From positions 62,001 to 87,058 of the forward strand of contig QPGO01000257.1 in the NCBI GenBank assembly GCA_008632985.1: 25,058 nucleotides of DNA, given 5' to 3'. Below are positions 3,638 through 25,058 of this stretch, piece after piece. This stretch comes from Psammoneis japonica (Eukaryota). The first letter of the stretch is position 1, and the number at the start of each line of letters is the position of its first letter. The notes beneath the pieces are model-generated. The model saw nothing but the letters and a program-made list of their open reading frames with translations. It was not told the origin of the DNA and made no database searches. The translations under genes and the position numbers were made by a program.

Positions 3638-3981
3638 AATGGCCGGTTGTGACCGGGTCACAGGGGTTTTGTTTCGCCATGAAAAGACGCCGTTGGACCC
3701 ATCAACGTGACGTACAATGGTCGGTGTTGACATTGAGACGACAAGTTGACCCTATTTGAAGTGTCTTTAGCGCTGTCATGCGTTGGCATGCAGCATGGAA
3801 GACTCAGCAATGGCCGGTCGTGACCGAGTTGCAGGGGTTTTGTTTCGCCACAAAAAGACGCCGTTGGACCCATCAACATGACGCACAATGGTCGGTGTTG
3901 GAATTGCGACAATGCATTGATCCTATTTGAAGTATCCTTGGCGGTGTTACGACGTCAGTGTTCAGCATGGAAGACTCAGCA
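3638..3981 (+). repeat. Tandem duplication, 171-bp unit x2
   Basis: AATGGCCGGT...AAAAGACGCCGTTGGACCCATCAAC...CCTATTTGAAGT...CAGCATGGAAGACTCAGCA starts at 3638 and again at 3809. Confidence 0.9.
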
Positions 3982-4204
3982 GTTCTCAATGTGGTGGCAT
4001 GATGGTGGAGTTAGCTGGAGGCCAAGGAGGACTTGCCCTGAATGTGTTTCTGTGGATGCAAGAACCGCAAATGACGCATTGGCCCCATTGGAAGTTGCTT
4101 GAGCAGCACTGTGGCAAACACAACCGGTGTGGACGACTCAGCAGAGCTCAAATTGGTGGCATGACAGTGAGTTCAGCCTGATCCCAAGGAGGGCTTGTTC
4201 TGAA
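3973..4204 (+). repeat. Second, more diverged direct repeat (~70-bp core, ~162-bp spacing)
   Basis: GACTCAGCAG..CTCAA..TGGTGGCATGA...CCAAGGAGG.CTTG..CTGAA occurs at ~3973 and ~4135. Confidence 0.7.
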
Positions 4205-5933
4205 AAGGTCGCTCATCCAGGAACTGTGACTGGCTGCTTTGTCGTCCTTTTCTCCATGCAGCAGCAGTTTAGAGGGCTCTGCTTTGTGGGTGCAAACAAG
4301 CAACACTTCCAAAAATGTTTGTGGTTGTGGATGTCAACCAGTCACATGACAAATCTGTGACTGAGATGGAAATGCTGGAGAGCTGTTGAGTCGGCGGCGT
4401 TGTCCTCTTGTTGGACGAGCTAGAAGTCTCATCATTTGCTCTCCTGCTGCAGAGAGCATTGTGTGAATTGAACAGCAACTTGACACAGGAGATGACAGTG
4501 ACATTGGTGGAGGAGTTGGATGTGGTTGTCATTTGAGAATGATTCACAGTGGGGGGCGCAGGCCTCTGTTACGACCCAACAACATGCAAACAGCTGTGCA
4601 GTCCATTGAAGCTTCTGACCAGCTTTGAAGGCGACACATTTTTGTCTGTCAATGGACCAACCATCCACATGTTGTGTGACAACAATGTTTTGGCATTTTT
4701 GCTTTACATTCACAGTGTGCCAGCAACGCCATTTGCTCTCTCGCAAACTCTTCGTGCTTCGTGTTGTTCTCGTGTTGGAGCTCGCAGAGTTCGTGATGTT
4801 CGTGTGCTTGCATGAGAAACTGTCGCATGTAGAAGCATGTTGACTTTCCACTGGTGTGCCAAAAATGAAACTCGGCAAGCTGTCCATCGGCAATCGGCAT
4901 GTGTCCCACCCCTGCACAGGGAAGAGCACAATGGATGCACCGGCAATTTGGGCGTTCATGAAATTTTCATGTGCTGTTGTTCAACAAAATTTGGCATTGT
5001 TTGCACACAAAAAATGGTGTTGGCAGAGACAATTGAAGGCAACACCAAAGGCTTTGTTCTTTCCTTCACTTCTGACAGTCATCACTTTGGTGTCGCCACT
5101 GCCCGCCGGCCTTGGAGCACGTTCCAGCCCCAGGTGACGTGCAAAACGATGCTCCCTTTTGAGCACAATTTGTGCGAGCTTTGCACTTTGAGGTCGTCAA
5201 TTGAGGGCACTTGTGAGTTCTGGCTTTTGTGTTTGATTGGAGTGCAAACATTTGCGCAACTTTTTTCATCAGCACTCAAGCCCTCACAGGGTGTGTTGCA
5301 AAAATTTTTCTGTGGCGGAAATGATGCTGGCTGCATGTCAGACCAGCCTCCACTTGGGCCACGACTTTGCCCCCGTTGCATCACATGAGCGGCATGACAG
5401 ATTGTGCTGCCAAGTGTGGCAAGTGTGGAGATGGCCTGGGAACAGATGTTTTCATGCGCTGCACCATGATTTCTTGCATGCACTTTTTTTCACATTCCAT
5501 TTGTTCATTCTTTCAAACACAAGGCCTTTTTTGTGTTCTGTTTTTGACTTTTCTGTGGAACATGCCCTCGCACACTCCACATCAAAGTGTCAGCGATCGG
5601 AGTGCGATGGGGTCACACTCCGTTCCGACAACCAAGACAGCGGCACTCCATTTTCATGTGGAATGTGTTGAGGCCTCTTTGCATTCCATCATGACCAAGA
5701 AGAATGTCAAGCCTGTGTCTTCTGTGCACAGCAGCACTCCATGCACAGGAGGACAGAGGTCAACGCACTCTCACATTCTCTGGCATCGAAGTGTGATGAT
5801 GCCAACACGCTTGTGTCATTTGGCACACAGCATGGAATGAGAACATTGCAGCCAAGGCAATGAACATCGGCATGGTTCACGACACCACTGCTTGAATTCT
5901 CTCTGTTCATCTCTCTGTCACTGCGATGATTCA

Positions 5934-5957
5934 AACAACAACAACAACAACAACAAC
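5934..5957 (+). repeat. (AAC)8 microsatellite
   Basis: Eight perfect AAC units. Confidence 0.9.
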
Positions 5958-8025
5958 ATCAAGATGGGCAGGGGATGGGGGCGTTGTCATGGGGGCCCCA
6001 GATTGCACCTGAGTTTTTGTGTCATCTTTTGGTCACAGAAAATGTTGTTCAATTCATTCATTTCTGAATTTGCATCAAATTCTCTGTTGCATTTAGCACA
6101 ACAATGCAGAAGTGATGGTTGAGGTCCTCAAACAGAATTGGAACGAGAATCCTGAAATCTGCACTTGCCCCATTCATTGCAACATGGCACACACTCAAAC
6201 ACACACTTTCAAAAATGAGTGAAGCAACAGTTCGAACCTCAGGAGTGACCGATGGACACAGAAAACAATGTGGAAAACATTTGCAGTCACATTTGATGTT
6301 CATTTGACAACACCTGGCAAAACATCATTTGGCTCTGCATGTTTTCTTTTTCGGTGTAGAACACACGACGATTGACGCCAGAGGAGAGGAGTCTCATTGG
6401 ATGCAGTTTTTTCTCTCACTTCTCACCCGCTCTTGCACAAACCAGAAACACAACAGAGCTGCAGCATCTGAAGCAACAACAGCAAAGAATGGCAGCACAT
6501 GATTGGGCGGTTTGATGGGTGATGATTGTGGCATGCTTGACGGCAAGTTGTGATGGGATTGCTCAGAACTTCAAAGTTTGCTTGCACTTGCATTTTCTTT
6601 TCTCTCTTTGCTGTTGAGGTTTGTTTTCCACAGGGTTCTGATTCCAAGCATGGCTGCTCTCTGCAGCTGAGAGAGTGGTGCTGCATTGCTGCCTGCTCCA
6701 TTTTCTAATGACAGAGATGTGTGGGCAGTCGTGTCCATCAACAGCCTGCAAGTGCCACCTTTTTTGTTTTTTCTGCAACCTTGAACCTGTTGCTCACTTT
6801 TTACTTTGACTCATTGTGCTCATGTTTGGGAAAGGTTGAGGCACCCCTTGTCATCCAGCAGGCAACCAAGATCATCAAAAGAAGAAATGCATCATTCTGA
6901 GATTCGGCTGAGCGGTGCTTCGAAGCAATCGGTCAATCAAGGGAGGGCAGAGCACCAGCATGGGTGGAGCAGGAGTTCTTGTTCAATGGAAATGCAGCAG
7001 CAGCACCATGGCTTCACTTTAGAATTTCACTTCATTCCACTGCAAGCTCTGCATCACACGCTTTGGTTGAGTGCAAGGAATCCACAAACAGAGGGCAGCA
7101 AAAGGAGTGGCAAATGGAGCACAAAACAAATGGCCTCTTTTCAACAAAAGAAGTGATGAAATGGGCACAGGCATCACTCATCTAATCAAAATTGTGCAGT
7201 GCACACATCCAGTTTTTGTTGTTTTTTGCATCATTTCTGCAAGCACTGCATTGCTGACGAGTGCAAACAATGTCATTTCTTGTTTGACCTCAAATGCTGT
7301 GTTTGTTGTTTCCGCAAAGGAGTCCATGAGACATGAAGACACATCGGACATTTTCCCACACAAAGGCCTGACATCATCTTCCACCAATTTGGTTGAGCCT
7401 TTGACGCCAAATGAGGCCGGTGTCAGGCAGCTCTGATGCACGCCTGCCTGGAAAGACCTCTGTGACATCGCTGCTGATGCAAGTTCAGATCACACTGCAT
7501 GTTTGAATGAAAGTCATTTGAGTGCAGTTGTTGCATTTCTTTGTCAACAATGTCTGACAAATGAGCAATTGTCCAGAACAACAAATGACAAACACTGGAT
7601 CGGTGACCCCTGCACGCAAATTGCGCCCCAGGTGCAGAGTGTGGCACATGCGCTGGAATGTGATGCAGATTTTGACGAGGCTTTTTTGTTCTGCACCCTG
7701 TTGCTCGCAATCCATTTTGAGGCCTTTCTTGAAGGAGCCACACACACATTCCATGTGATTCCATGGATTCTTGTTTCCTGTGCAAGTGTGATGAAGCTCA
7801 GGAATTTTGCACTTTGCAGCATGGGCACAGGTTGTTTTTGTGCCCTGCACACAGAAAAAATCCAAAGCAAGCTCTGGGATGCACCCACTCTCCATTGTGA
7901 GTCTGTGTGTTGACCATTCTTTGCATGTGCACTTGCACGCACCCAAAGGCAACAGCAATCTTTTGGCTCTCAGAGTCATTTTGGCCAGCGCAGCAGCCAA
8001 ATTCAATTGGCGCTGATGTGAGCCA

Positions 8026-8421
8026 GACGCGTTCCAGCCCTAGGTGGGAGCTCGTAGTGCTGACGTGTGACAACAATAATTTTTATCATCCGTCGTATGT
8101 TTCGTACGTAGATTTCTACGTGTGACATTTAAAAAAAATTGTCCAGACTCGCTGTTTTGCGAAGCCCCAGACGTTTTATGTGACATATTTATAGAAACAA
8201 TAATGCGCCAGTTACATTCTTCAATGTCTGAAGAATGTAACTGGCTAAGTAAAAAATGATGTACTTCAATCATGTGCGAGTTTGTGCGTTCGCAAAATTG
8301 CCTCATTTTCTGTTGGCGATCATTGACATTTAAATTACCGTATAATTTTACTACGGAGCTCGCACGTAGAAGTCTACGGGCCCAATGTCACACGGATTCC
8401 CACCTACGTCTGGAACGCGTC
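8026..8421. mobile_element. MITE, 396 bp, with imperfect ~24-bp TIRs and 4-bp TSD GCCA
   Basis: Left end is GACGCGTTCCAGCCCTAGGTGGGA; the reverse complement of the right end is GACGCGTTCCAGACGTAGGTGGGA. GCCA flanks both sides (8022-8025, 8422-8425). It has subterminal GTGTGACA motifs and an AT-rich non-coding interior. Confidence 0.85.
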
Positions 8422-9445
8422 GCCAACAGAAAATTTTGTTTGGCACTTCTTGTCATGCGACATGTGAAACGCAAAAATTCTGGGTGTCTTTCGAAATCAC
8501 ATCCTTGCAATCTGCAGTGCCCTCAAGAAAGCAATGGCGATGCATTGTTTTGCATCATGGGAGGATGCTCAGCCAAACCCCAGCTGCCCTTGCATCAGGA
8601 TCAACTGGTTGTGGGCCAGCATCTCCACAGGTGAATTTTTTTTGTGGGTTGCAGCGCCGCAGCACTTGAGAACAAAATCAATGACGCCAACAGCATCTGC
8701 ACCAGAGCAGCTGATGTTGCAGCAAATGGGGGTTGGGGAGTGTCAATCTTTGTCCCACTTTGGCTGATGCCATCCAAAGCAAACTGTCAAGTTTGCAATT
8801 GGCAATGTCTCAGAGTGACACATCCCTGAAGTTTGCCAATCAGGCTGGAGCCTTTGGGTGGCAAAAGACAAGATTGTGGCTTTGTCCTTCATCAGAGCAT
8901 GCAATGCAGTGATCCAGACCTCCATTCTCATGATGATGTTTTTTCCTTTTGCAGTTAAAAATTCAATGGTTTCAAACCTCATCAGTTGTGTGCGTGGCGA
9001 CAATTTGTCATCCATGAAAGATGAGCTTTGTTGCTGTGGAGCCCCCCAACCATCCTGTGAGGTGACACCACTCACTGTGAAACAGCCAACCCTTTCCCTG
9101 TGAGAGTGCCCGCCCTCCATTCCTGCAAAACCTGCAAATTAAAATCATTTTTTGTGTTGCAAAATGTCCTGTTTTGTTGTTTGCATTTCATTTGAATGAT
9201 GCTGACAGAGACAACGCCATGATGCCTGAGGCTTGCCATCCAGAGACACAAGCCCAGCGGAGATGCTGCTGACAACACTCCAGTCTGCCCCTGCATGGGA
9301 GTTGAGCTGAGCAGCAGGGGACCAAAGAAGGTGTCATGCGCCAGTGCAAAGGGGAGAGGCAAAGCCTGTCAGACAAATCTGGACAAGAGCAGTGCCAAAA
9401 AAATGCAGGCAAAGAGCCGTCTTCTCCACCCTGCATGTCTCACCT

Positions 9446-9718
9446 TTTGCCATCAAGAGCATGTGTGATGGCTTGGTTGTGCATGATTTGAAGGGAGGGT
9501 TCTCCACAATTGCCACCTCGAACCACAATGGCATTGGCAACTTGCAGTGTTGTCTCAATGTCTTGTGCATTTGACGCTTGTCAATTCCGGAGCAAGAGAC
9601 CGACCAGGCCACAACAACGGTGGGTGTTGCAATGGTCCTCAACAAATGCCTTGGTTGCAGTGGCCCACAATTGAGAGTCGTCTTGATCAAACTCAGCATC
9701 CATCATTCCTTGCAGTGT
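9446..9718 (-). pseudogene. Pseudogene fragment paralogous to the juxtamembrane extracellular domain of the FG-GAP gene (22664-22930)
   Basis: My translation TLQGMMDAEFDQDDSQLWATATKAFVEDHCNTHRCCGLVGLLLRN*QASNAQDIETTLQVANAIVVRGGNCGEPSLQIMHNQAITH aligns with SLVGMDTEFDTVDTDLWTATTELFVEDFYNTRRRRRGLSTLLRVLQVSNIQNMETTLSVTKTSVVRNGNGTNSSLQVIYNQAVTY. This frame is not in the ORF track. Confidence 0.85.
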
Positions 9719-11741
9719 GTGGCAAGAAAAGTGTCATTGCAAGAAACAAACACCCGTCAGATTCTTGCTGAGAACAACTGACAAGTTGAGACACAAGATG
9801 ACTGCAGCTCCTGCTCCAGATGCATCGGACTTGCCACCAACGGATGTGGACAACATCAATGATGTGGGCACACCTCCAAGCCATGCACAGCAAACATTGA
9901 CCTCTGCTCCACCAAATGAGGGAGGCTCACAAACAACAAGTGCCACTTCTGAAGCTTCTGCAGCTGACTCAGGATCGCCAACCCCAATGGTCACAACACA
10001 CTCATGTTGTGGACAGTTCATCAATGACACATTTGGAGTGTGGACCAGAAACAGCAGAGAGAAGCTCAAGCATCCTCCAATGGGTTGCCTCCCCACTCTC
10101 TGCCTCTGCAGTCTTTCTGGATCAGTGCACAAGAATTGGAGAAGATGGGTGCAACATCAGCAAACACATGAAAAACAAGTGAACCTCTTTTTGCACATGC
10201 CACCTTGTTTGAAGATTGTCATTTGTGGTGACTTGCGATGACTCTAGATGCAAAACTCTGACATGCGCAATCAATGCTGCAGAAAAAATTGTGATGTGCG
10301 TGCACACAACAACACGCTGTTTCGGCATTCTGGATGATGATTTTTTGACGTGGCAGATTCGTGACAGCACACTCACGATCTTGAAACTCAAGCGATGCCC
10401 CCCATTCAAAAACCGTCTTTGCCAGCCATGAGGACAGCAGGTCTCGCCATGCATTGAGCTGCTGTCATGGGCCAATGGGGCAATGTCTTTCACCGCCATG
10501 GAAGGTTGCCGGCTTTGCAGATTTTGAGATCACACGCAGAGTCCACGTGAATCACAACAGCGCACACTCTCATTTTTTTAATTTTGGGGAGAGGGTGCAC
10601 TGTCATGAAGTGTGCAGGAAATTGCACATGTAAAAAAAAATGCTGAAAATGCCGCAGACCAATGGGCTGTGAAGCATGAAGAAATTTTTTTAAATGAGGG
10701 TGGGTCACGTGTCAAGTGCTGCATGAAGTGCACTGCACACATGCAAAGACACACGCGCGTGAGTGGGGAAGACAAAGTTAAAACCAAGTTCAAATTGATG
10801 ACCATCAAAAGGAAACCAAACCATGCATCACATTTTGACCCCCAACCAAATTAAACATTGCACGCATTTGATCGAAGCTTGTGCAAGAAAAGCAAGTGAG
10901 ACATCAGATGAAATGCACAAAACAGTTGAATTTTGTCGAGCACTTTTGCTGGCAATTTTTAAATTTTGCTTGTCAACAATTTTAACAGCGCACATTAAAA
11001 AATTGACAAAGGAAAGTGGAAACCACCACATTGCAGCCTCTGATGTTTGTGTTCCACACCAATCACATCAGGAGGCAGGAGGAGCATTTGGTGCAAGGGA
11101 TGGAAAGAGCCTGGATTTTTGATGTTCAGGCTCAAGGGACCAGAGCATTCTGAAATTGCTCATGTCAGAGGCGAGCTTTTCAAATCCTTTCCACATGAGC
11201 TTGTGTCACATTTGACATTGTTTGTTGATCTGAGCACCTCGTGTTTGGTGTTTGATGGTGTCTTGAGTGTTTCCAAGGCACTTGTCCAAATCCTCAACTG
11301 TGGGCAAGAGTCTGCAGGACGACTCTGTTGAGACAGGTGGTGCACTGGAATTTCTGATGTGGCACTTGAGTTCATCCAACATGCTGCTGATGCAACAAAC
11401 CCTTGGGATGCAGCGTCAAGAACTTGACATGATCAGCTGGCAACCCTGTCTGAGCTGTTGGGTGAGTCTGCTGTGGGCAGGTTGCAAGTGAAACACCAAC
11501 TCAAAGTCGGCACCACAGCCCACCTCAAGCTGAATGACTGCATCAATCATGCCACTGGCTCTGAAGAAGAGGAAAATGAGTTTCAAAAAAGAAAAACCCA
11601 TCGCGGCATTGGCACTCTCCACAATCGCCTTTTCATTTGGCTTCACATCTGCCAAGTCTTCCTTGAGAGCAACAAGCAATTTCCTGCTGCTGATCCTCTC
11701 CTTCAATCATTCTCTTTTGTCTTCCATGGAACCACAAATGC

Positions 11742-12533
11742 TCATCTGTCTGAGGTTTGACTCTCTGTCAAACAGTTCACCAAAGTTTGTTGCTTCATCT
11801 GTGGCCTCTGGCTGGAAATCAATTGACAAAAGGTCATGATTGCCTGCACCCATTCCTGTTTCAGACAGTCTTGTCTTTGTTTCTCTGTCTTTGGGCAACA
11901 TTTTTCCCACAGTTGTTTGCAGACAAGCCAACTCCTTGTCCAGTTTCTCAACAAATGTTTCATCACCAATCTCTTGGTGGTGGCAAAAAGCCACTCGTTG
12001 TTGCCTCTGTGCAGCTCTTTGCACCTTTGGCATTTCTTGGCTTTTGGCACAGCACAGATGTCAGATTTGTGTGGGCAGCATGGGCAAAAGTGTTCAGCCA
12101 CCTCACAAGCTCCACCTTTGTGAAGGCCCTTTTGATGGGCAATGTGGTCACCAGTGTGTGATGGTTTCAGAGTTTCTGTGTCTTCATTCAAAGATTCCTC
12201 CCCACAGTCATTCATGAATTCATGGAAATCTTCAAACAGATTGAGTGTCTCATGGCTCTCCTGACCTGTCATCACTTGAAATGGGAAACAGCAGCAGCTG
12301 GATTGTGCTGTTGCTGCACTGCTTGTGACCACCAAGCTGGCAAGTTTGTCTGTTGGTTTGACACCTGCCATGATGTTCTTGTCACACTTGTTGAGTGTCA
12401 TGCTGTCAACAGCAGCACTCACTTTTCCACTCTTCTCCTGGCTGCTTTGTCCCACAGGCGGTGTGCTTTTGACAATGTGGCGAGTGTTGGGGTTGAACAT
12501 TGGCACGAGTGCTTTCCCGTCTTGTGCTGCCAC
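11742..12533 (-). pseudogene. Degenerate DDE transposase fragment with RAG1/Transib-like motif order
   Basis: QSSCCCFPFQVMTGQESHETL resembles RAG1 [22 protein letters not shown]. Downstream TGD..AHQKGL.KGG.....FCPCC resembles the second catalytic Asp plus CxxC region. The third catalytic region is not recognisable. Confidence 0.45.
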
Positions 12534-12949
12534 CTCAACTTTTTTTGCTGTGCCACACAGAGCTCAGGTCAATGGCATCACACCATGAAAATGCCTGGCA
12601 CCACCACTTTCCACTGACTGAAGAACCGCAACTCCTGAGTGTGACAGCTTTGATCCAGCAAGATCCATGGCTCTTAGAAGTTTAGAGGGTTTGAGTGCAT
12701 TCTCCCCAAACCATTTCCAAGGCCGCTTGACATGCTTCCACAGAAGTCATCTGAGAAAACAGTGCCCACCACTGTTGTGTTGGTCTTCTTCATGCTGACC
12801 TTGTTGCATTGGCAGTTTGACCACTCTTCTAAAAAGGTTCGCAGCTCTTCCTTTGTGTCCACTTCATTGCTTGATGCACCCTCATCTTCCTCAGATTCTT
12901 CCTCTTTTTTTTTTCTTCAATGTCGTCACCATCATCTTCTTTTTCTTCT

Positions 12950-13135
12950 AAAGAAAAAAAAAAACAAAAAACAAAAAACCAAACCCAATTTAAAGTGCTG
13001 TTGCACCTTTGCCCAGCAACGCTGGCTCCAGCCAACCCACACCTCCAGTGCACCCAGTGAGGGGTGCGGCAGAAGCGGACTTGATTGGCCTGAATCAGCA
13101 TCTCCCTGAGGAGATGCCCGATGGAAATGGTTGGT
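12950..13135 (-). mobile_element. 3'-terminal fragment of a LINE related to the element at 19420-20780
   Basis: The reverse complement aligns with ~20610-20780 (stem-loop, GGCCAAT, CTGCCGCACCC, GTGCACTGG, CAGCACT) and ends in a T-rich (TTTTTG) tail. Confidence 0.7.
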
Positions 13136-13184
13136 GCAGAGAGCACAATGACACTTGAAGTTTGCTGCAGCATTGCTGGTGACA

Positions 13185-13616
13185 TGCAGCATGCCTTGCT
13201 GCTGGACAACACGGCGAGACCGTGCACAAGCCTCTTGCCCGTGGCAATGCAGCATTGTCAACACGCACCTGGGAAGCATGACCACAGGAGGGCGTGGCTC
13301 CAGGTCTCAGGCAATTCCAGAAGGGTGCTAAGAGAGCATCCGTGTGAAGCACACCAGCCCGTCGTCTGGCCCATGATGGTGGCGTGATTCCACATGATGA
13401 CATCACTCGTGCACAGCGCGTGATGGCTTGATTCGCACGATCCACAATGCGAACGCACGATCGATTTGATGCGATCCAAATGCGAACGAACAGGGATTTG
13501 GCAAGATTCCCTGTTCACACGATCCCATTTTCTCTGCTCTAAACTAGCTCACAATTTTCACAACGACAAAGTCGCAACACATCTTCTTTTTCAGCGCCCA
13601 GCACACACACAGGGCA
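13185..13616 (+). repeat. 5' LTR (432 bp)
   Basis: TGCAG...GGGCA; about 90% identical to 18054-18486. Confidence 0.95.
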
Positions 13617-13677
13617 CAGTGATGTTGCTCCCGCATGTTGTGCGAGGCAACGAAATCTACAGAAACAAAACTACGAA

Positions 13678-14754
13678 ATGTTGGCAGGACCGACAAATCT
13701 TAAAACGACCATGAAGAAGCGGATTGAGCCGCCAATTCCGTTCGCACGGCCGGAGAAGAAAGAGCTGCAGCAGGGCGAGTGCCAGACGTTCAAGCTGCGT
13801 AACAACCCTGCTGATCCGGACAGTCCAACACACGAGATGGGCATTCCGCACCTTTCCACGGCTACATGCGAGACACTCCTGATCTTTCTGCGCAACGTAG
13901 ATCGCGTGCATGAAGGACAAAACATCACGACTGGGCCAGCGAAATTTGCCCTCATGCGTGACCCACTGCAAGGTGATGCTCTGACGTCATTTAACAATGC
14001 CGCTGACAAGCAGGCATCCCAAACCAACGCCACGCACGCAGCATGCGTCGCGAAGCTAAAGGAAAGCATCTTCCCACATGGGGCGGCACTGTTGCAGAAG
14101 CGTTGTCTGAGGCGCTTCATGCGCAAGCCCGCAGAGGTTTCTGCTCGTGACTGCGTCGCGAGGGCTGTTGAAATTAACGGCTGTGTCTCTCAGTTTCCAC
14201 CCGTGATGGAGGATGGAGAAGCACAGGCACCATCACCCAATGACAAACTGTGCGACATGTTCGAGTGCGGTGTGCCGAACGCATGGCAGAAATTCATGAC
14301 GCCACAGAATTTTGACCCGTTGGCGCATGCTGTCACCGAATTTGTGCAGTTCTGCGAGCGCATTGAGCAGGTCGAGCTTGCCGAAGGTAACCTGGACCAA
14401 CATGCCAAGGTTCCACGCAAGCGGGGACGTAGAACGGACAATCCTGAGTCGTTGATTACGACCCAACGGAACACCCAGAAGTCATGCATGCCACACGGGA
14501 CCAACTGTGGACATCATGCGGAGGATTGCCGTCAGCTCAAGCACCACACAAAACGTGTCAAGACTGGACATTCCAATGACGGAGGCAGCAAACCCAGTGC
14601 AAAACCCTGGAATGAGGAAGACATTGATGCTCTCATCAGATCGAAGGTCGAGGAGTTCTTTGCCAATGCTCAGAAAAAGCGCAAGGCACGCGAGGAGGAG
14701 CTCAATCACTTCCGCGACCTCAACTCAAGCGATTCCGAAGATTCGGGCACTTGA
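13678..14754 (+). pseudogene. gag: Gag (358 aa, open frame but hypermutated; contains no Tyr)
   Basis: It follows the 5' LTR and has a LRRFMRKP/EIN...FPP segment, a zinc-knuckle-like CMPHGTNCGHHAEDC and an acidic C-terminus. Confidence 0.85.
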
Positions 14755-17700
14755 GAAGGGGGCCCACACGACACAGGCAGCTTCAATGCATTGGACGAAT
14801 GCACAAATGAACAACTGAATTACCATCGTACACGTGTTGCAGGCCAATCCTGCAAACGAGTTAAAAAGACTCATCTTGCTCCAATCTTGTTCACAACTGT
14901 GAATGCCAAACATGGCAAGGGCAAGACTCAAACCATTAAGGCACTGCCAGATAGTGGCGCCAGCAGCACTCTACTCGACAGTCGACACTGCAAACGTCTG
15001 CGAAGCCATTCAACGGCTGAGACAAACTGGACTACGGTAGCAGGCTCGTTTAGTACGTCTAACGACTGTACCGTTAAATTTCGGTTACCAGAATTATCCG
15101 AAACTGCAGAACTTAAACATACCGTCCACGTACACAACGGAAAGTTGGGCAAGTACGATATGATTATTGGACGTGACATTCTGGAGACACAAGGCATTGA
15201 TATTGTCTTCTCTAAACAGATGATAGAGTGGCCATTAGTCAATGGAGAAGTACCAATGAGGCACGTAGATGCTACGGTAGAAACCTCCTTCTATCTTCAA
15301 GATCCAGAAGCCTTATCTTCGGAAACCAACCGGATTTCGCGTATTTTAGACGCTAAGTACGCGCCGGCCTGCCTTGAGGACATAACGCGATAGGCAATAG
15401 GATTTTTCTATAGTTCAATAAAACGACCTTTTGGCATTATTGAAACGCCATGAGTCCTTATTTGATGGGACATTAGGAGAATGGAAGGGAGAACCCTACC
15501 ATATCCAACTCAAGGAGGGTGTAGAACCATACCACGCTCGTCCGTATAAAGTACCTCGTGCGTACGAAGCTACGCTACGTAAAGAAGTAGAACGCCTAGT
15601 GCGCATCGGTGTTCTCAAACGCGTTAACCGATCCCAATGGGCAGCTCCATCATTTATCACACCGAAGAAAGATTTAACGGTGCGCTTTATTGATGATTTC
15701 AGAGAGCTGAATAAACGGATCAAGCGATTGCCTTGTCCGATTCCTCATGTCCAAGACATGCCACTTGAGCTCGAAGGCTTTGTGTGGGCCACATCGCTGG
15801 ACCCCAAATGTGGGCTGTCATCACATCCGATTGGATGCTGACAGCAAGAAGCTCTGCACGCTCATCTTCCCGTGGGGCAAGCATGAGATGCAGGCATTGC
15901 CCATGGGATTGTGCAACTCGCCAGACATTTTCCAAGAACGCATGTCAGGCTCATTTGAAGATCTGTCGTTCGTTCGAACGCACTTAGATGACCTTCTCGT
16001 CGTGACGAAAGGCACCCATGAAGATCACCTCAACAAACTTGAAGAAGTTTTGTTGAGGGTCCAGAAAGCAGGACTAAAAGTCAACGCAACTAAATCTCAC
16101 TTCTGTCAAACCCAATTAGAATGCTTGGGTTGTCCAGTTGACAGAGACGGAACACGACCAACACCTGATAAAGTCGACGCCATTGAGCGAATCGCGACCC
16201 CAGCCAATGAACGCGACCTGCGCTCATTTGTTGGCATGGTGAACTGCCACCGTGACATGTGGACCAGACGTTCTGAAGTCTTGGCTCTGCCAACACGACT
16301 CGTGAGCGAGACTGTTGAGTGGAAGTGGACGTCCGTTGAAGACGAGGCGTTCGAAACCGTTGAACGGGTGACATCGGATGATGTTTTGTTGTCACATCCT
16401 GATTTTAACAAACCCTTTGAGGTGCATGCCGATGCCTCTAAATGTCAATTGGGAGCAGTTGCATCCCAAGACAATAAACCCATCGCCTTTTACACCAGAA
16501 AGCTTGGTGGTGCACAATTAAATTGCACAACAACGGAGAGAGAATCGCTCGCCATTGTGGAGACGTTGAAAGAATTTCGAATGATTCTCCTTGGTCATCG
16601 TGCAATTGCACACTGATCATAAAAATCTTGTGCACAAAGCATTCAATGCTGAGCGCGTCATGCGCTGGCGGCCAACATGTGAAGAATGCGGTCCCGAATT
16701 ACGCTGTGTTGAGGGTGCCCACAACCCAGTCGCTGATGCTCTTAGTCGCCTTCGGCTGGCACCCAGCTTGCCTTCCGAGGCCAATCCGGATGTAAAAGAC
16801 ACTCCATCGAGTCGTCCTTTGCATGAAGCTTTTAATGCAGACGTGCAAGATGAGCTGTCTCTGCCTGTTGGCTTCAAGCGCATTCAAAAAGCACAACAAA
16901 AGGACAAGCGCCCACTCTCATCAGCCAAGGACTCGTCCGACCACTCCATTCGCGCGCATCGTGGGGGAGGGTCATCACGACAGTTAATCTGTCACAAGGA
17001 CAAAATCACAGCACCACAGTCATTGCATTGTTCCGCTAACTGAATGGTGCCACAAGACACTGTGTCATCCAGGTGAGACACGCACGGAAATGTCTGTTGC
17101 CCAGCACTTCCATTGGCCTGGCATGAGGTCTACGGTGCATTCTACGTGCGTCAAGTGCGATCGATGCCAGAAGACAAAATGCCGAACGCAGCATTGTGGG
17201 AAGCTGCCAGAAAAGGTCGCAGAGATGATTCCATGGGAGACTCCATGCACAGATGTGATGGGGCCACATAAAATTCAAAGACGCGGAAAGGACACTTTGC
17301 AATTGTGGGCAGTCACAATGATTGACCCAGCAACCGGGTGGTTTGAGATTAAAGAAGTGTCTGCGAAACGCGCAGACGTCGCAGCAAACGTCGTGGAACA
17401 AACATGGCCATGCAGATGTCCGTGGCCAACCCAGGTGGTTCATGACCGTGGGACAGAATTCATGGCAGAATTTAGCCAGATGATTAAAAATGACTGTGGG
17501 ATTTTGAAGAAACCCATGAGCAAACGGAATCCACAAGCGAGTGCCATGGTGGAACGTGCACACCAGACACTTGGCAACATGGTGTGTTCCTTTTCAGCAC
17601 AGGATGTGGAGCTGGACGAAGATGACCCATGGAGTGGCATCCTCTCCGCAGTGGCCTTCGCTGTTAGAGCTGCGGCACATGCGACCACGCATGCAAGTCC

Positions 17701-18013
17701 CATGCAATTGGTCTTCAGACGTGATGCGGTTTCATCTGTTGCTCATCGTGCCAAGTGGAAGCACATAGAAACCAGAAAGCAGAAGCTTGTCCACTTGAAC
17801 AACAAACGTGAAAATCAGAAACGCAAGGAGTGTCAACATGCTGCAGGGCAATTGGCACTTGTCAAACAGGAACAATCCTCGAAATGCGGTTCTGACAGCC
17901 ATGCAGGACCCGCCAGAATTGTCCGCGTGTGTGACAACGGCACGTTGCGTGTCCAGAACGGAGCGCTGACAGACACGTGCAATCTACGGCAGATTGCACC
18001 CCATCACCAGTGA
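14755..18013 (+). pseudogene. pol: Pol: aspartic protease, reverse transcriptase, RNase H, integrase; broken by stops and frameshifts (~15391-15421, ~15802, ~16600, ~17035)
   Basis: PR: ALPDSGAS and DMIIGRD. RT: WAAPSF, DFRELNK, LPMGL, HLDDLLV. RH: ADAS..QLGAV, TTTERE, TDHKNL, NPVADALSRL. INT: H..LCHPG..C..C, then D(VMGP), D(RGTEF), E(RAHQTL). No chromodomain. Confidence 0.95.
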
Positions 18014-18053: not shown

Positions 18054-18486
18054 TGCAGTGTGCCTCGCCACTGGACAACACGGCGAGACTGTGCATGAGC
18101 CTCTTGTGCGTGGCAACACAGTGTTGTCAACACGTGCCTGGGAAGCACGACCACAGGAGGGCGTGGCTCTGGGTCTCAGGCAGTTCCAGAAGGATGCCAA
18201 GAGAGCATCCGTGTGAAGCACACTGGCCCGTCGTCTGGCCCACGATGGCAGCGTGATTCCACACGATGACATCACTCGTGCATGGCGCATGATGGCTTGA
18301 TTCGCACGATCCACAATGCGAATGCACGGTCGATTTGATGCGATCCAAATGCAAACGAACAGGGATTTGGCAAGATTCCCCATTCACATGATCCCATTTT
18401 CTCTGCTCTAAACCCAGCTCACAATTTTCACAACGACAAAGTCGCAACACATCTTCTTTTTCAGCGCCCAGCACATGCATGGGGCA
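18054..18486 (+). repeat. 3' LTR (433 bp)
   Basis: TGCAG...GGGCA followed by TSD GACA. Confidence 0.95.
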
Positions 18487-19419
18487 GACACACACGTTGG
18501 TTGCACCACCACCACAGAGGACAGCTGCATTTGGGAAAAATTCACACAAGAGCCACAAAGGGAGCCAAAAGGAAGACAAAGGAAGAGCGCCAAACCACTG
18601 GCTGTCCCTCATCAAGTGGGAAACCTCATTCAAACCTTGAAGAAATGAAACAATGAAAGATCACTGCATGCAACCGAGAGCTTGATTTGCCAGTGAGAGA
18701 GGGAGAGTTTGCCCAGAACTGGGAGACAAGAAATGGGAGTGCTTGATGATTCGATGAGTCGGTCATCAGGAAAGACATTTTTCACACATGGAAGCTGCAC
18801 CGGATCTTGCACAGAAATGCCGTTGTGCACAGCAAATGGATGGAAATCACTTGTTGCCGAAGGGAGGCTCATGCTCACACTCGTCAGCATCACAGCAGAA
18901 GCAGCGCTTTCACCACACAAGCAGCGAAGGACTTGATTGGCTGATGGGGACAAAGAGAGTCATTGGAAATGGAAGAGCACTGGCGTGAGAAGCTTGGAGA
19001 CTTGACGAAATCTGTGTAGAAAATTTCTTGGATCTGGAGAAAATGATGAAAAGAGTCAACATGCATGCGACCCATGAGGAGTCAATGCCAGTTGTTTTCC
19101 ACTTGGCAACATTGCTTGGCATGCTGAAATGAAGGCACGCCATTGACAGAAAGGGCCAGCATGGTCGTGGGAGACCCAGCAAAAACTGCCGTCTGAGAAG
19201 GGTGACATCAGTGTGAGAGCGCACGCAGAAACACACACAGGGTTTCTTGGTGGGTGGCTGCCGCAGAATTGTTCTTTTTCTTCTAAAGATTCTTCATTGT
19301 TGTCATCTTGTTGGCTTGCCTCTGCCACCATCTTTCCTTCCAGAGCCTCCTTCTCTTTTTTGGGCCACCCTTGTTTTTGCGGTTCATTGCTGCAGCAGCT
19401 TTGCGGTGGTGGGTCATCA

Positions 19420-20780
19420 CATCTGATTTGTGGCGGCATGTCATCCATGAGATCTTTGCTTCATTGACAAGCTTGGAGGCCCAACATGACGGACACCCTG
19501 CAAGCAATGTTGTCGACATGAAGTGGATTAAAAGCCATCAGGATGACAACACTCCTTTTGAGTCCCTCCCATTTCCAGCAAAATTGAATGTCAGAGCTGA
19601 CAGATTGGCAGGTCTGCTTCAGGGTCAATGCACTGGAGATGCCTCAATGGCCCCCCACATGCCCCATTGCTCTGCATTGCCAAACGTCCAGCCGGCATCA
19701 GTGAACTCGAAGTTTAAATCAGTTCTCCATTGCAAAGCTTCCAGCACAGCCCTGATGCAACACATGAAGGAGAAGTGCAGATGGTCTGACTCAGTGCGCG
19801 AATCTGTTGATTGGAGAGTGCATTCCAAACTGATGTCTTGCAACATCCGACGAAAGGTGAGCACCGTGAAATTGGTCCAAGATTTGCTGCTGACGAACAA
19901 GATTATCCACAGACATGATCCCACACGCCCCGACTGCTGCATGCATTGCCAACACCCCCTTGAAGATGGGGATCACATTCTGCGTTGCGCTCACAATGAA
20001 TCATGGCGGTGCACGTTTCTCCAAGGATTGCGGAAGAAATGTGATGACATGCATGCACCCCTGTCTGTGCGAGACCTGTTGTCACATGCCTTGGAAGGTT
20101 GGTTCAACAAGGAATTGCTTTGTTCTGCCCACGTCCATCACAGCATCACAGAGTTGTTTCGATCTCAAGACGACATCGGTTGGCGTCACATTTTCAGCAG
20201 GTGTGTTTCTTCATTGTGGAACAAGTCACAAATGCCACACTTGGTGTCCTCTGGCTTGTGTTGCTCCTTGTCCGATAAAGACAAAAGATTAGACTGGGCG
20301 GCAACAATTGGCAGTTGCGTGTGGTCACAATGGCGGGAATTGTGGGACTCCCACAATGACGCAGTGCACGGACATGATTCCGAGACGAGAAAGTCTTTGC
20401 AACGATGGGGTGCAGAGGCGGAGGTTAAAGAAATTTGCTCAAGGGCAGACGAGCACTTGGCCCGTGACTGAGCAGAGTTGTTTGATTCAGCAGATGAACA
20501 TCTCACCCATTCCACCCACAGACTCCGAAATTGGCTCGCCGCGGCAAAGCCAATGTTCAAGTCGAGCATCCGAGAGGCCCGGCGTCCAGCTGTCAGAGGC
20601 ACGCACACCATTGCAAGCTGCTTTGGTGTGGCATCACCCGAGGGTGATGCCGATCTTGGCCAATTGTTGCATGCTCCTGCCGCACCCAGTGCACTGGGAG
20701 TGTGGGCTGGCTTGTTGCCGGAGTTGCAGGGTGGAAGCGTGGCAGCACTCAAAGTTGGATTTTGGGTTTTGTTTTGATTT
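19420..20780 (+). mobile_element. 5'-truncated non-LTR retrotransposon (LINE with RNase H and C-terminal CCHC; diatom Ambal-like type)
   Basis: RNase H C-terminal motif WIKSHQDD...AKLNVRADRLA, zinc knuckle CMHC..LEDGDHILRC, Q..IGW and W..HN..VHG. There is an internal TGA at 20469; the ORF ends near TIASCF, followed by a 3' UTR and T-rich tail. No Tyr in the 387-aa ORF. Confidence 0.8.
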
Positions 20781-21360
20781 GTGGTGGCATGCTTGATGCT
20801 TCATCTCCAGCTTCTGTGTGGGGCCAATCAACAATGTGTGGTTGACTTCATGCTGACACCTCACACTGCTGCACTTTGCCTTGCCACCAAGGAGATGCTT
20901 CTCCTTGTCCCACAGGTCACAGTTGTGGCACAGAACATGTGGGCAATCTCAAAATGCAGTGCACCTGTTGATGCCACAGTTGCAGCAAGCAACAACAGCA
21001 CATCCCCTTCTTTGAAGCATGCAGCTGGTGGATGGCCATGTGTGAGAACTCTGGCTTGGCTTGGCTGCTCTGCTCTTGCCCTTGAGACCGTTGGGGAGCT
21101 GGGGGGTGGCTGAGCCAGAATGTCCAGCAATTCTTCCAGCAAGCCTCTTGCTGGCATGCAGTGCAGCCAGAGCCATTGTGCTCATCTCATGTCTCTTCTG
21201 CATCGGCATGTTCCGCATCTCGTCTGCTCTTTTTGGAAACTGGGCTGGCAATTTCTGCAGGTTCCCACGCAGGAGGATGCACTGAGAATGTTGACGTCCC
21301 CAACCCAAATCAGAACACCGTCTTAGCCAGTTCTGTTTCGGTGAAAAACGGACTTGACTC

Positions 21361-21825: not shown

Positions 21826-24460
21826 ATGATGAACCGTTCCAGCGAGTTCTGCGAGTTTGACAAAGACGATGACCACCAAGACTTGTGCGACATGTCCGGT
21901 GGCGGCGATATAATCATGAGCCGTATGGACGAAGACGGAGAAGAAACCAAGAAGAACCATGGGATGGAGGATCATCCTGGCACTAGCACGACAAAGCAGA
22001 TATGGCGGGCCGCTCTTGGCAGCCAGCAGCTAAAGCACCGAGAGGTTGAAGAGTTGAATGTAGAAGAAGAACAACAACAACAACTTCAGACAATTGCAGA
22101 AGCTGCAGACAACACTCTGATTGTTTCCCATGCCGCACTCATTGATACGAGTGGCTCAGGCACTGCCTCGGCTGGGGCCTTTGCTGTTGGTCGCGCAGGG
22201 CGACTAGTTCGACGCGAGAGAAATACTGATGCTGATTCTCAATTTTCTGAAATCGAAACTGTACGCTCCGATCATAGTGATGCCCTTTTGACACCTCCAC
22301 AGACGCAGCCTGAAAGTAGCGACGGCAACGTACTCATCGAAGCACATCTCGCCGAACCAGGGGGGATCTTGAGGTACGGGTTGCCCGTCTCGAAGAAGGG
22401 ATTCGAAATGCAGAAGTTGCCCAAGTTGTAGATGACTCACATGAGGAGAGCACTAACAAGAAGCAGCTCGTGTTGAAGAAACGACGCTTGTCGAAGGTGA
22501 TAGCGACGAAGATATCAGGCGGAAGCGTCGCCTTCGATGCATCATTATTCTAGGGATTGTGGTGATCATTGCGGCGATTGTAGGTATAACCGTCGGACTC
22601 CTTTCTGGCGGCTCAGGCAGTGGCCCAACCAGAGTGACCAAAAATGCAAGCGGGTTGGTTATGAGTTTGGTTGGCATGGACACGGAATTTGATACCGTCG
22701 ACACGGACTTGTGGACCGCAACAACGGAGCTATTTGTAGAAGATTTCTACAACACCCGTCGTCGTCGTCGTGGCTTGAGTACTTTGCTTCGGGTTTTACA
22801 AGTGTCGAATATACAAAATATGGAGACGACCCTCAGCGTTACCAAGACCAGTGTAGTCCGAAACGGCAATGGCACCAATTCATCTCTACAAGTAATATAC
22901 AACCAAGCCGTTACGTATACTCCCGGCCAGAACAACCACGAAGTGTCCATGGATGAGTTGGCGACCGAGCCATTCGAAACATCTGCTAGGAGATTGGCCT
23001 ACGTGGAGGACCTTCGGACGGCAGCGACAAAAGCGGGAAATGGTATTTTTGAGAAATTGGTTACTACTAGCGAAGTCACAACTTCAGCAAGAGTGCCAAC
23101 ACCGTTACCCATGACAAGTTCCCCGGCAAGTGAGTCTTCAACGATAGACCCGGACTCGCCACCGTCTACTCCGGTTCCAACGACATCGCGCCCTACCTTG
23201 AATCCTACTCCACCCCGTGCTACGCAAGCTCCGACAAGCAATCCGAATGATTTGATTCCAAATGGTCCGTGGCAACCATTTGGACAAGTCTTGCATGGCA
23301 AAGCTGGAAGCGATTACTTTGGTAAATCCGTCTCCTTGTCACGTGATGGAATGGTCATGGCGGTAGGTGCAGAGCAATCTTCCAGCAATCCCGGCTATGT
23401 TTTTGTCCACAAATACGATCAAGCTACTCGGCAATGGTCACGCATTGGACAAGAATTGATTGGGCAAGCCAGAGGTGACAATTTTGGTACTTCCTTATCT
23501 CTCAATGGTGACGGAACGATCCTCGCGGTTGGGGCTGACCAGCATGACAGTGATAGTACAAAAAATACAGGTTATGTCCAAATTTTTGAATACAACTCTT
23601 CTTCAGATTGGTGGGTCCAACTTGGCAACGTCATCCCCGGACAAGCTGCTGGTGATTGGTTTGGTCATTCCATTTCGCTGTCGGGCGAGGGAGACACCGT
23701 AGCTGTCGGAGCCTGGGGTGAAAACACGGCAAATGGCAATGATTCCGGGTCGGTGCGGTGTTTTCAACTTATACGCAGTAAGGCATCTTGGGACAAACTT
23801 GGACAAACCCTGATTGGTCAAGCCGAGGATGATGACTTTGGCATTTCCGTGTCCTTGAGTCACTCAGGCACGGTTGTTGCCGCTGGAGCAGATGAAAGCG
23901 ACATAGGTGGAAGCAGTGCAGGTCAAGTATCGGTGTTTGAATGTGATTCTTTGTCATCAAGGTGGGATTCATTGGGCGATCCAATCAATGGACAAAATAT
24001 ACCTGGCTATTTTGGAGCTTCTGTTTCGCTTGATGACGGTGGTTTGATAGTGGCGGTGGGTGCACCAGGAGAAGATGAGAGGGTGCTTGTTTATGAGCAT
24101 CATAGGGACACGTCGACATGGAGTCAACGAGGCCAAACTCTTTTAACAAAACAGCCTGATGATGATTTTGGTTGGTCAGTGTCATTGAGCGGAAATGGAA
24201 GTGTCATGGCTGTTGGAAGTTGGGAGCATGACGTTGATGGGTTGACCAACGCGGGTCAAGTCAGAATCTTTCAATTCGACATCACCACAAATGAATGGGA
24301 TCAAGTTGGGGATCCTTTGAATGGCGCGGCTGAATGGGATGAATTTGGGGTGTCTGTGTCCTTGTCAGCTGACGGAAGCATTGTTGGAGCTGGCGCAATG
24401 TTCACGGATGCCAATGGAGAGGATTCTGGATCTGTTCATACATTTGCAATCAACAAGTGA
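21826..24460 (+). CDS. Type II single-pass membrane protein with P/T/S-rich stalk and 7-bladed FG-GAP (integrin-alpha-like) beta-propeller; reading frame discontinuous at 22360-22460
   Basis: Acidic, disordered N-terminus (with GAFAV), RRKRR plus TM IIILGIVVIIAAIVGITVGLL, a PTPLP..APTS linker, and seven FG.SVSLS.DG...AVGA repeats. Confidence 0.85.
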
Positions 24461-24589
24461 ACAACTTTAGCCCTTTCCATCTTTGCCATGTACGGCAGTT
24501 GCTTCGTGCACCACTGCGGGTGTGGCATGAAGAAAAAACAGCTTTTTCGAACAATGTAATTAGGATGACTGAATTTACCAGTGTGTGCA

Positions 24590-25058
24590 CCATCATGGAG
24601 CATTTCTGCGAAACGGGGCGTCACGTGATTTTGTCACTTTGTTGATTCATGCTGGCTCCTGCTTTGACATTTGTGGCAATGCGAGACCCAACACCAGGCT
24701 GTCCACATGCCCTGTGGAGACTCTCAATTGTTCAGTCTTGGAGCAGACACCCCCAAAAATTCCTCTGGTCAAATCACCAAGCTGTTGCTTCTGCAGCAAT
24801 CTCTTGTGGGGACCACAGCAGCTCCCATCTCGGTGGCCTGCCAGCTCCTTCCACACTCACTTGCACTTTGGCTCTGAAACCATGAAACAACACAGCTGCT
24901 CTTGACCCACCCACTTTGTGCGGAGCATGCTGCCACTGTGTGGGGGCTGCAACTGGCCATTTAAAAATTTTTCATTTGGGAGACCCAAGCGCTCTTTGCT
25001 GTGGTTCAGCTGGGGCTGTCGTTTTTGCTGCTGTGAGCAATTTTTTGCGCCAAAGCCT
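24590..25058. repeat. Start of another TpA-depleted, unclassified repeat region
   Basis: Only one TA (TTTAAA at ~24961) in ~470 bp; CA/TG-rich; no recognisable protein. Confidence 0.6.

Follow-up and report, generated by a model that had tools for sequence, protein, structure and literature searches.

We analyzed a 25,058-nucleotide stretch of contig QPGO01000257.1 (GenBank assembly GCA_008632985.1, positions 62,001 to 87,058 of the forward strand), hereafter called the window; all coordinates below are window positions. The window reads as eukaryotic DNA: a host gene lies near each edge, and between the two are ~17 kb of mobile-element DNA, including a Ty3/Gypsy long terminal repeat (LTR) retrotransposon. 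A preliminary description of the same DNA had reported that conserved tyrosines of this element were converted to His or Cys. The observed loss of Tyr lies far beyond chance and is much wider than was noted there, and its target is the dinucleotide TpA, coding or not, rather than tyrosine codons. Dinucleotide frequencies are given as observed/expected ratios (o/e). From left to right, the window contains the following features, which include open reading frames (ORFs), a putative miniature inverted-repeat transposable element (MITE), and part of a putative long interspersed nuclear element (LINE):

360-1715, minus strand: 7tm_3 part of a predicted family-3 receptor gene (Pfam match)
1716-3527, minus strand: ANF_receptor part of the same predicted gene (Pfam match below cut-off)
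3950-8025: hypermutated block A, an unannotated repeat relic, largely single-copy today; TpA near absent, CpG low
8026-8421: MITE-like insertion of 396 bp with normal TpA (located with a repeat finder)
8422-13182: hypermutated block B, without annotation; Tyr-free ORFs occur on both strands (from dinucleotide counts)
13185-13616, plus strand: 5' LTR, direct repeat with 18054-18486; 3 TpA left, o/e 0.13
13678-14751, plus strand: gag frame of 358 aa from the first Met, without Tyr; TpA o/e 0.20 over 13617-14820
14755-15393, plus strand: predicted protease region of pol, its 3' part within the unmutated island; weak aspartyl protease Pfam matches below cut-offs, colinear with residues 2-220 of homologue P0121
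14821-15712, plus strand: unmutated island spanning the end of the protease and the start of the reverse transcriptase (RT); normal TpA, Tyr kept
15713-18013, plus strand: hypermutated RT, RNase H, and integrase region (RVT_1, RT_RNaseH_2, Integrase_H2C2, rve)
18054-18486, plus strand: 3' LTR; 1 TpA left, o/e 0.04
18491-21320: hypermutated block C, including the LINE-like ORF2 tail (from dinucleotide counts)
19287-20468, plus strand: putative LINE-like ORF2 tail, matching the C-terminal ~300 aa of proteins of 1200-1950 aa
22457-24460, plus strand: predicted FG-GAP_2 repeat protein gene (Pfam match)
23651-24460, plus strand: 3' end of the FG-GAP repeat gene, with partial TpA loss (TpA o/e 0.27)
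24461-25058: start of a further hypermutated block, which runs off the window (from dinucleotide counts)

TpA was lost on both strands from ~3950 to ~21320, and the loss resumed at ~24460. The three old blocks (counted over 4013-8040, 8421-13182, and 18491-21320) together retain 35 TpA in 11,620 bp, at an o/e of 0.04-0.05: 11 in 4028 bp in block A (o/e 0.04), 16 in 4762 bp in block B (o/e 0.05), and 8 in 2830 bp in block C (o/e 0.05). Across these blocks the o/e of CpA and TpG was raised to 1.67-1.95 (CpA 1.95 and TpG 1.67 in block A), and the counts of the two dinucleotides were nearly equal (456/448, 530/519, and 297/300, respectively). The Gypsy element had a TpA o/e of 0.19-0.20 outside its island and LTRs, with 26 TpA in 2341 bp in the region 15713-18013; taking the hypermutated parts of the old blocks and the Gypsy element together, TpA o/e ranged from 0.04 to 0.20 and CpA/TpG from 1.35 to 1.95. 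The block that starts at 24461 contains 6 TpA in 598 bp (o/e 0.17), with CpA at 1.69, TpG at 1.70, and CpG at 0.37. ApT and the other A/T dinucleotides were normal, and GC content was little changed. Non-coding DNA, LTRs, and DNA that could not be annotated were affected as much as coding DNA.

The flanking host genes had a TpA o/e of 0.59, and values of 0.46-0.75 were obtained across the 800-bp host windows tested. The host genes and their upstream regions were normal in TpA up to the borders near 3950 and 21320, with the next border at ~24460. These borders are sharp, falling within tens of bases. CpG was also unevenly distributed, with an o/e of 0.27-0.44 in the old blocks (0.39 in block A and 0.27 in block B), 0.78-0.95 in the Gypsy element, and 1.52 in the MITE-like insertion; this depletion suggests cytosine methylation of the same blocks as well as a relative age order among them.

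The preliminary description had argued that the process inactivates by missense while removing TAA and TAG, leaving long spurious ORFs, and counts of stop codons and ORFs agree with this. Across six frames, TAA and TAG together occurred 17 times versus 203 TGA in the block at 4013-8040, compared with 138 versus 166 in host DNA. Hypermutated blocks had 3.2-5.0 ORFs of at least 100 aa per kb, three to four times the density in host DNA (1.0-1.3 per kb). Tyr was absent from most of the 107 ORFs that reach at least 70 aa in or beside the blocks, and the exceptions were mainly at block borders or in the MITE-like insertion; within block B, all ORFs of this size lying wholly inside the block contained 0 Tyr. 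A Pfam search with the 107 ORFs of the old blocks found no family at or above cut-off, and an Atlas search with the longest of them (11745-12563, minus strand) found no usable match.

The element between blocks B and C was identified as a predicted Ty3/Gypsy LTR retrotransposon by its LTR pair, its gag frame, and the order protease-RT-RNase H-integrase, with the 4-bp sequence GACA on both flanks (13181-13184 and 18487-18490). RVT_1, RT_RNaseH_2, and Integrase_H2C2 matches were above Pfam cut-offs, whereas the rve and protease matches were below. The pol region is colinear with Pol homologues of 1000-1100 aa but is broken by four frame changes, three near 15805-15814, 16598/16600, and 17028/17036 and a fourth near 15390/15428 within the island. 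In the sequencing run described below (run X1), other contigs carry 1-2-nt indels at 15403, 15805, 16612, and 17028/17029, the same four places.

To place the Tyr losses, we aligned 60 full-length Pol homologues (~60% identical, 2.9-4.6% Tyr) to five pol segments of the window. In the region flagged by the preliminary description, at 20 columns with Tyr in ≥80% of the homologues, the window has 1 Tyr, 10 Cys, 8 His, and 1 Trp; at 24 columns with Tyr in ≥60%, it has 1 Tyr, 10 Cys, 11 His, 1 Trp, and 1 Phe. Tyr was never replaced by Arg at conserved columns. The six lost Tyr motifs that had been listed earlier all fall at columns with Tyr in 97-100% of the homologues, with the codons as described: YLDD to HLDD at 15981 (CAC), GYYH to GCHH at 15816/15819 (TGT CAT), NYYR to NCHR at 16245/16248 (TGC CAC), NYTTTE to NCTTTE at 16524, WYH to WCH at 17048, and FYWP to FHWP at 17267. 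Active copies with the same His and Cys residues would have spoken against the description; instead, intact homologues carry Tyr, and the island of the element itself has Tyr at 3 of 3 conserved columns.

The damage extends beyond Tyr. The window differs at 71 of 368 conserved Pol columns, and 40 of these 71 differences amount to a single TpA-to-CpA or TpA-to-TpG step: Tyr to His or Cys, CTA to CCA, TTA to TCA, ATA to ACA or ATG, GTA to GCA, and first-position A to G after a codon ending in T. By our own tally, residue types rarely affected by TpA loss were kept at ~93%. The remaining replacement rate was similar in the hypermutated part (31/368) and in the island (5/93). Leu was replaced by Pro six times, always as CCA, and by Ser three times, twice as TCA and once as TCG. 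The example ERELL to ERESL of the earlier description is the TCG codon at 16545, which is not explained by one TpA step. Lack of Tyr in gag (358 aa), integrase (307 aa from the first Met, with none in the 341-aa open frame either), and the LINE-like frame was likewise borne out, except for the 387 aa that had been given as the length of the last.

The LINE-like frame at 19287-20468 in block C measures 394 aa from stop to stop or 317 aa from the first ATG, and it contains 0 Tyr. We take it as the tail of a LINE-like ORF2, because it matches the C-terminal part of long proteins, some of which have an endonuclease domain or RVT_1: among eight long homologues scanned, an APE-type endonuclease domain (Exo_endo_phos) was found in three and an RVT_1 match just under cut-off in one. 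The 127 aligned homologues contain a mean of 3.1% Tyr; at the four columns with Tyr in ≥50% of them, the window residues are H, H, C, and F.

An element starts out with two identical LTRs when it inserts, so the LTR pair bears on when the changes occurred. The LTRs differ at 43 of 432 aligned columns. Twenty-six of these columns form 13 adjacent pairs with CA in one LTR and TG in the other, and 2 columns have TA opposite CA. The rest comprise 9 CpG-type transitions, 3 other A/G differences, 2 columns that form one CC-versus-TG pair, and 1 indel. CA opposite TG implies that an ancestral TA was hit independently in the two LTRs once the element had integrated, within genomic DNA and on either strand; the damage was thus done in place. 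If the two outcomes are assumed to be equally frequent, the 13 discordant sites correspond to ~26 sites mutated in both LTRs and to ~29 ancestral TpA in 431 bp, a density equal to that of the unmutated island. By our own rough estimate, ~93% of TpA site-copies changed in the LTR pair, compared with ~15% for CpG and ~0.5% for other positions. The TpA rate would then be roughly a few hundred times background, as a lower bound.

Both strands were affected about equally, in agreement with the earlier observation that A-to-G and T-to-C changes indicate hits on both. This even use is based on the numbers of Cys and His at the ≥80% columns (10 versus 8), our count of TpG-type and CpA-type single steps (21 versus 19), and the near-equal CpA and TpG of the old blocks.

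The bases beside TpA also influenced its fate. Among the 77 TpA that survive in the hypermutated parts of the window, 0 are R-TA-Y and 49 are Y-TA-R, whereas the 89 TpA of the unmutated island and the MITE-like insertion include 21 R-TA-Y and 18 Y-TA-R. Because survivors are mostly Y-TA-R, the mutated strand is preferentially 5'-TAY-3'. In a simple two-strand survival model, per-strand hazards of TAT and TAC were 2-6 times above that of TAA in four of four data sets.

Within the Gypsy element, the island at 14821-15712 retains 61 TpA in 892 bp (o/e 0.94), with CpA at 1.04 and TpG at 0.97, and its GC content is 0.46 versus 0.51-0.54 beside it. Tyr was kept at 3 of 3 columns (≥80%) and at 5 of 6 columns (≥60%). 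The island is colinear with Pol homologues and is therefore no insertion. Seven of its 93 conserved columns are replaced, two of them explicably by one TpA step; its non-TpA divergence (5-7/93 versus 31/368) and its CpG per base resemble those of the flanks. The island may owe its origin to local protection, to restoration from another copy, or to a polishing artefact.

The second spared segment, the MITE-like insertion at 8026-8421, has 24-nt terminal inverted repeats (8026-8049 and 8398-8421) that are 92% complementary, an internal 17-nt perfect palindrome, and repeated CGTGTGACA motifs; by our own reading, GCCA flanks both ends. A TA-flanked Stowaway-type MITE was considered and dropped, given these GCCA flanks and terminal repeats that end at 8026 and 8421. 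TpA o/e is 0.85 and CpG 1.52. In run X1, the summed contig depth of the MITE bin was ~68,000 versus ~35 for unique DNA (~2000-fold), with a loose end at 8421 and a joint at 8026. The MITE looks like a young insertion that is unmutated so far.

The Gypsy element is inserted between two blocks that were already TpA-poor. In one run X1 contig, at a depth of 64, position 13182 continues into 18491 with no Gypsy element in between, and TG stands in place of the window's CA; this contig appears to be an empty-site paralogue or an allele with the other outcome at an ancestral TA. On thin evidence, the likely order of events is that the old repeat was mutated first, that the Gypsy element was inserted and then mutated, and that the MITE arrived last.

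Run X1 is the sole public sequencing run with the window stretch and is kept as contigs; it may be the source sample and is hence not independent. No RNA run was found among the public sequencing runs that contain the window stretch. In block A, run X1 contigs match 5036-6647, 6779-7607, and 7578-7983 exactly at depths of 31-35. Exact contigs at single-copy depth were found over parts of blocks A, B, and C, which indicates that the damaged DNA is not tied to present repetition or to retroelements. Exactly matched TpA-free stretches at single-copy depth measured 334 to 1612 nt, and no alternative letters were listed between 4849 and 10242. The Gypsy family is represented by hundreds of copy-equivalents. 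Differences among run X1 contigs were mostly transitions, with 240 transition places versus 39 transversion places. Among the rows listed (31 of 40, left of 21.3 kb), at least 7 have TA in other copies where the window has CA or TG, at least 1 is an adjacent pair of CA versus TG, and at least 6 or 7 are CpG-type. At position 16995, as an example of TA retained by other copies, T was read at a depth of 7765 of 8083.

We also scanned metagenome contigs for related elements with an RT alignment; because one of its two patterns called for Tyr or Phe, the scan was biased against damaged copies. The scan returned 80 loci with a mean TpA o/e of 0.75. Two of them show the same damage:

Locus L074: TpA o/e 0.23; at 16 conserved Tyr columns, 1 Tyr, 8 Cys, 6 His, and 1 Trp
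Locus L009: TpA o/e 0.30; at 14 conserved Tyr columns, 0 Tyr, 6 Cys, 7 His, and 1 Trp

Since they share only ~65% DNA identity with the window element, these two loci represent separate cases. Their 113 surviving TpA include 6 R-TA-Y and 68 Y-TA-R, compared with 26% R-TA-Y and 25% Y-TA-R in 69 unmutated relatives. Lower values were also seen at L068 (0.43 over the whole locus) and L063 (0.27 at 3001-3500), which may be partly mutated copies.

Searches with the proteins of the two flanking host genes gave matches at 26-41% identity and no identical database entry for either gene. The organism-named eukaryotes among the matches listed were all diatoms (three per host-gene search), and one of the searches listed a further eukaryote entry, labeled CCRYP, which we take to be a diatom as well. 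An Atlas search with the receptor returned generic family-3 receptor clusters only. Because the flanking genes most resemble diatom proteins, the host is probably diatom-like and not Bigelowiella natans, the alga to which we compare it below. Within the receptor gene, ANF_receptor and 7tm_3 lie in one frame, with a single TAG between the two parts (1716-1749, minus strand). This TAG is the end of a GT...AG-like 34-nt stretch that may be a very short intron; 34 nt is no multiple of three, which leaves the gene model tentative. The left edge of the TpA-free block, upstream of the receptor gene, coincides exactly with two sets of tandem-like direct repeats (3638-4204), one of 139 nt (85% alike, spacing 171) and one of 75 nt (76% alike, spacing 162). 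No RNA genes were found in the window by Rfam or tRNA scans.

The FG-GAP repeat gene shows partial TpA loss at its end. Its last 810 bp (23651-24460) have a CpA o/e of 1.73 beside the low TpA, and the last 268 aa of its protein contain 2 Tyr (0.7%) versus 3.5% in 120 homologues. A repeat position with Tyr in 36% of homologue repeats is Cys or His in the window gene. The mutator may have spilled over into this gene end from the block that starts at ~24461, in a manner comparable to the leakage of fungal repeat-induced point mutation (RIP) into genes.

A process with the same signature has been described in B. natans. In mutation-accumulation lines of this alga, an integrated giant virus and a virophage acquired 231 new mutations, of which 230 were A to G or T to C and lay without exception at TpA; reverse transcriptase and DDE domains were overrepresented among TpA-poor coding sequences, the rate was ~1000 times background, and an ADAT2 homologue was put forward as the agent (Mettrop et al., 2026, bioRxiv 10.64898/2026.01.13.699255). 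For the window, we consider it likely that a host TpA mutator of the same kind acted on the genomic DNA of transposon-derived or silenced blocks. Under this model, TpA would become TpG where the top strand is mutated and CpA where the bottom strand is mutated. The window shows that the process acts in place after integration, on both strands about equally, on coding and non-coding DNA alike, and to near saturation, that it stops sharply at host genes, and that it favors TpA with a pyrimidine next on the mutated strand. Loss of Tyr codons is one by-product; codons for Leu (TTA and CTA), Ile (ATA), and Val (GTA) are lost as well, along with TAA and TAG stops, such that an element dies by missense while long Tyr-free ORFs open in six frames. 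The chemistry may be that of a DNA deaminase of the TadA/ADAT2 kind, which would convert adenine to hypoxanthine, a base that pairs like G. Recruitment would be through chromatin or silencing marks rather than sequence repetition, and the role of the process would be genome defence.

Several observations weigh against this model or parts of it. We judge the deaminase step to be about evenly balanced, and the enzyme is a candidate only, as none was seen; adenine deamination and thymine-aimed chemistry are not separable from sequence alone. Under the TAY preference, Tyr codons after a pyrimidine are expected to become mostly Cys. Cys was found after a 5' pyrimidine 7:3 and His after a 5' purine 7:4, and this relation between the base before the codon and the outcome is in the predicted direction but not significant (Fisher p = 0.20). 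A 0.9-kb island was left unmutated within an element that is otherwise 80-95% mutated, and recent repair of the island from an intact copy is not supported, its non-TpA divergence being no lower than that of the flanks. The MITE is untouched though it lies inside a targeted block, which fits recent insertion or episodic activity but may mean another targeting rule. In addition, run X1 is possibly the assembly's own sample and so gives no independent confirmation of the letters.

The principal rival takes the thymine of TpA as the target: oxidation by a TET/JBP-type enzyme to 5-hydroxymethyluracil, or further modification, would lead to mispairing with G or to wrong repair and produce T to C, read as A to G on the other strand. 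This rival fits the sequence data equally well, since TpA is its own reverse complement and all of the LTR, dinucleotide, and context patterns are equally predicted, with the equivalent context being 5'-RTA-3'. In kinetoplastids and dinoflagellates, thymine modification reportedly favors the T of TpA, which adds to the appeal of this rival. We nevertheless regard thymine chemistry as unlikely, because no enzyme or modified base was seen and the path to T to C is less direct than that from A through inosine to G. Adenine deamination is moreover the sole published proposal, as far as the B. natans preprint goes (Mettrop et al., 2026).

Editing of RNA or cDNA before integration, by an ADAR-like or in-particle deaminase, would suit a retroelement, and ADAR favors A after U and hyper-edits repeat RNA. 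Yet the 13 CA-versus-TG sites of the LTR pair cannot predate integration, and damage done in place excludes such editing as the main cause. Non-retroelement, non-coding, single-copy DNA over 11.6 kb is affected more than the element itself, and near-absolute TpA specificity without strand bias is unlike ADAR. We consider this explanation very improbable.

A sequencing, base-calling, or polishing artefact, such as miscalls at modified TpA, is similarly hard to credit. Base modifications can give systematic consensus errors on some platforms, and the island could stem from polishing with reads of another copy. However, run X1 contigs match the 334-1612-nt TpA-free stretches with 0 other letters, strand-specific miscalls would be expected to yield two word populations and none were seen between 4849 and 10242, and two unrelated metagenome assemblies have the same damage and context rule. 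The B. natans result, for its part, was based on short-read resequencing (Mettrop et al., 2026). Selection or compositional drift, whether through UpA avoidance in RNA, escape from a nuclease that cuts at TA, or gene conversion biased toward GC, can draw on the mild TpA shortage that is common and that the host genes share (0.59), but it has a negligible chance of being correct, as the loss of catalytic residues such as YLDD implies no selection in the element, GC and ApT have hardly shifted, no particular dinucleotide is singled out by biased gene conversion, each border is crossed within tens of bases, and the rate is a few hundred times background by our own estimate.

If a host TpA mutator is accepted, the window adds a case to a process that was described only very recently. 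A literature search that included papers on diatom transposons found no TpA-directed hypermutation in diatoms or in other lineages beyond the B. natans preprint, so that the precedent found consists of one 2026 preprint on one alga. The same signature on retrotransposons, in an apparently different lineage and in two environmental contigs, means that the process may be widespread among protists. More tentatively, and with somewhat less confidence than we would give an even proposition, distant algae (the diatom-like host, a chlorarachniophyte, and the hosts of L074 and L009) could share a genome defence: a dedicated 5'-TAY-3' mutator of silenced DNA, the adenine-directed mirror of RIP, that would be aimed by chromatin, act in bursts, leak ~0.8 kb into host genes, and seed predicted proteomes with Tyr-free, Cys/His-rich pseudo-proteins. 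LTR pairs, with their in-place proof and rate estimate, and the TAY rule are two new handles for finding the enzyme. For annotation, erasure of TAA and TAG leads gene finders to call many long Tyr-free ORFs on both strands, and the process weakens homology searches for transposons. The random choice of CA or TG in each copy also causes quick divergence, which misleads ages based on LTR divergence. A natural DNA adenine mutator with a defined context, if true, would be of interest to base editing.

Among known systems, RIP of fungi such as Neurospora resembles the process in the window in that it works at the DNA level, on both strands, with a dinucleotide bias, to saturation, kills transposons through missense as well as nonsense mutations, and can leak into genes. 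The direction is the reverse, however: RIP is C to T, mostly at CpA, and it creates TpA and stops and lowers GC, whereas in the window CpA increases at the expense of TpA, and GC is higher in mutated DNA (0.51-0.54) than in the island (0.46). RIP also needs duplicated sequence, whereas much of the mutated DNA in the window is single-copy today and a MITE of ~2000 copies is untouched. At ≥90% likeness, the mutated DNA at 5036-7983 and in other places has a single copy, which describes the present-day state, ancient repetition being possible.

APOBEC3 is likewise a deaminase-type mutator with a neighbor-base preference that inactivates retroelements, but it acts on cytosine of minus-strand cDNA before integration and leaves strand-biased G to A, whereas the window has A:T to G:C after integration and without bias. 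Hyper-editing by ADAR, an animal enzyme family, shares A read as G and a preference for a preceding U; it differs in acting on RNA with a loose neighbor preference, and it cannot make LTRs diverge after insertion. TadA and ADAT2-ADAT3 deaminate adenine after U or T, the natural tRNA target being A after U (U33-A34), and engineered TadA works on single-stranded DNA; natural DNA activity on chromatin-defined regions is not established for these enzymes. Decay of methylated CpG is similar in that a symmetric dinucleotide is lost to TpG and CpA in the same blocks (CpG o/e 0.27-0.44), but it affects another dinucleotide, runs in the opposite direction (GC to AT), and is much slower (~15% of CpG versus ~93% of TpA in the LTR pair).

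The closest comparison is with B. natans, as described in the main text of the preprint (Mettrop et al., 2026). The window differs in likely having another host and in being saturated, with a TpA o/e of 0.04-0.05 versus 0.45 in the B. natans viral region. Its targets are LTR and LINE retroelements and repeat relics rather than viruses, and mutation is inferred in the window, whereas new mutation was measured in B. natans. A term search of that main text found no LTRs, flanking-base context, trinucleotides, or retrotransposons; given this silence on LTRs and context, the in-place LTR evidence and the TAY preference would be additions to what the preprint reports. The two cases agree in A to G and T to C changes only at TpA, giving TpG or CpA according to strand, in TpA depletion with gain of CpA and TpG, and in confinement to foreign or mobile DNA that borders on normal DNA. 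As far as that text describes the process in B. natans, every one of its sequence-level features is present in the window.

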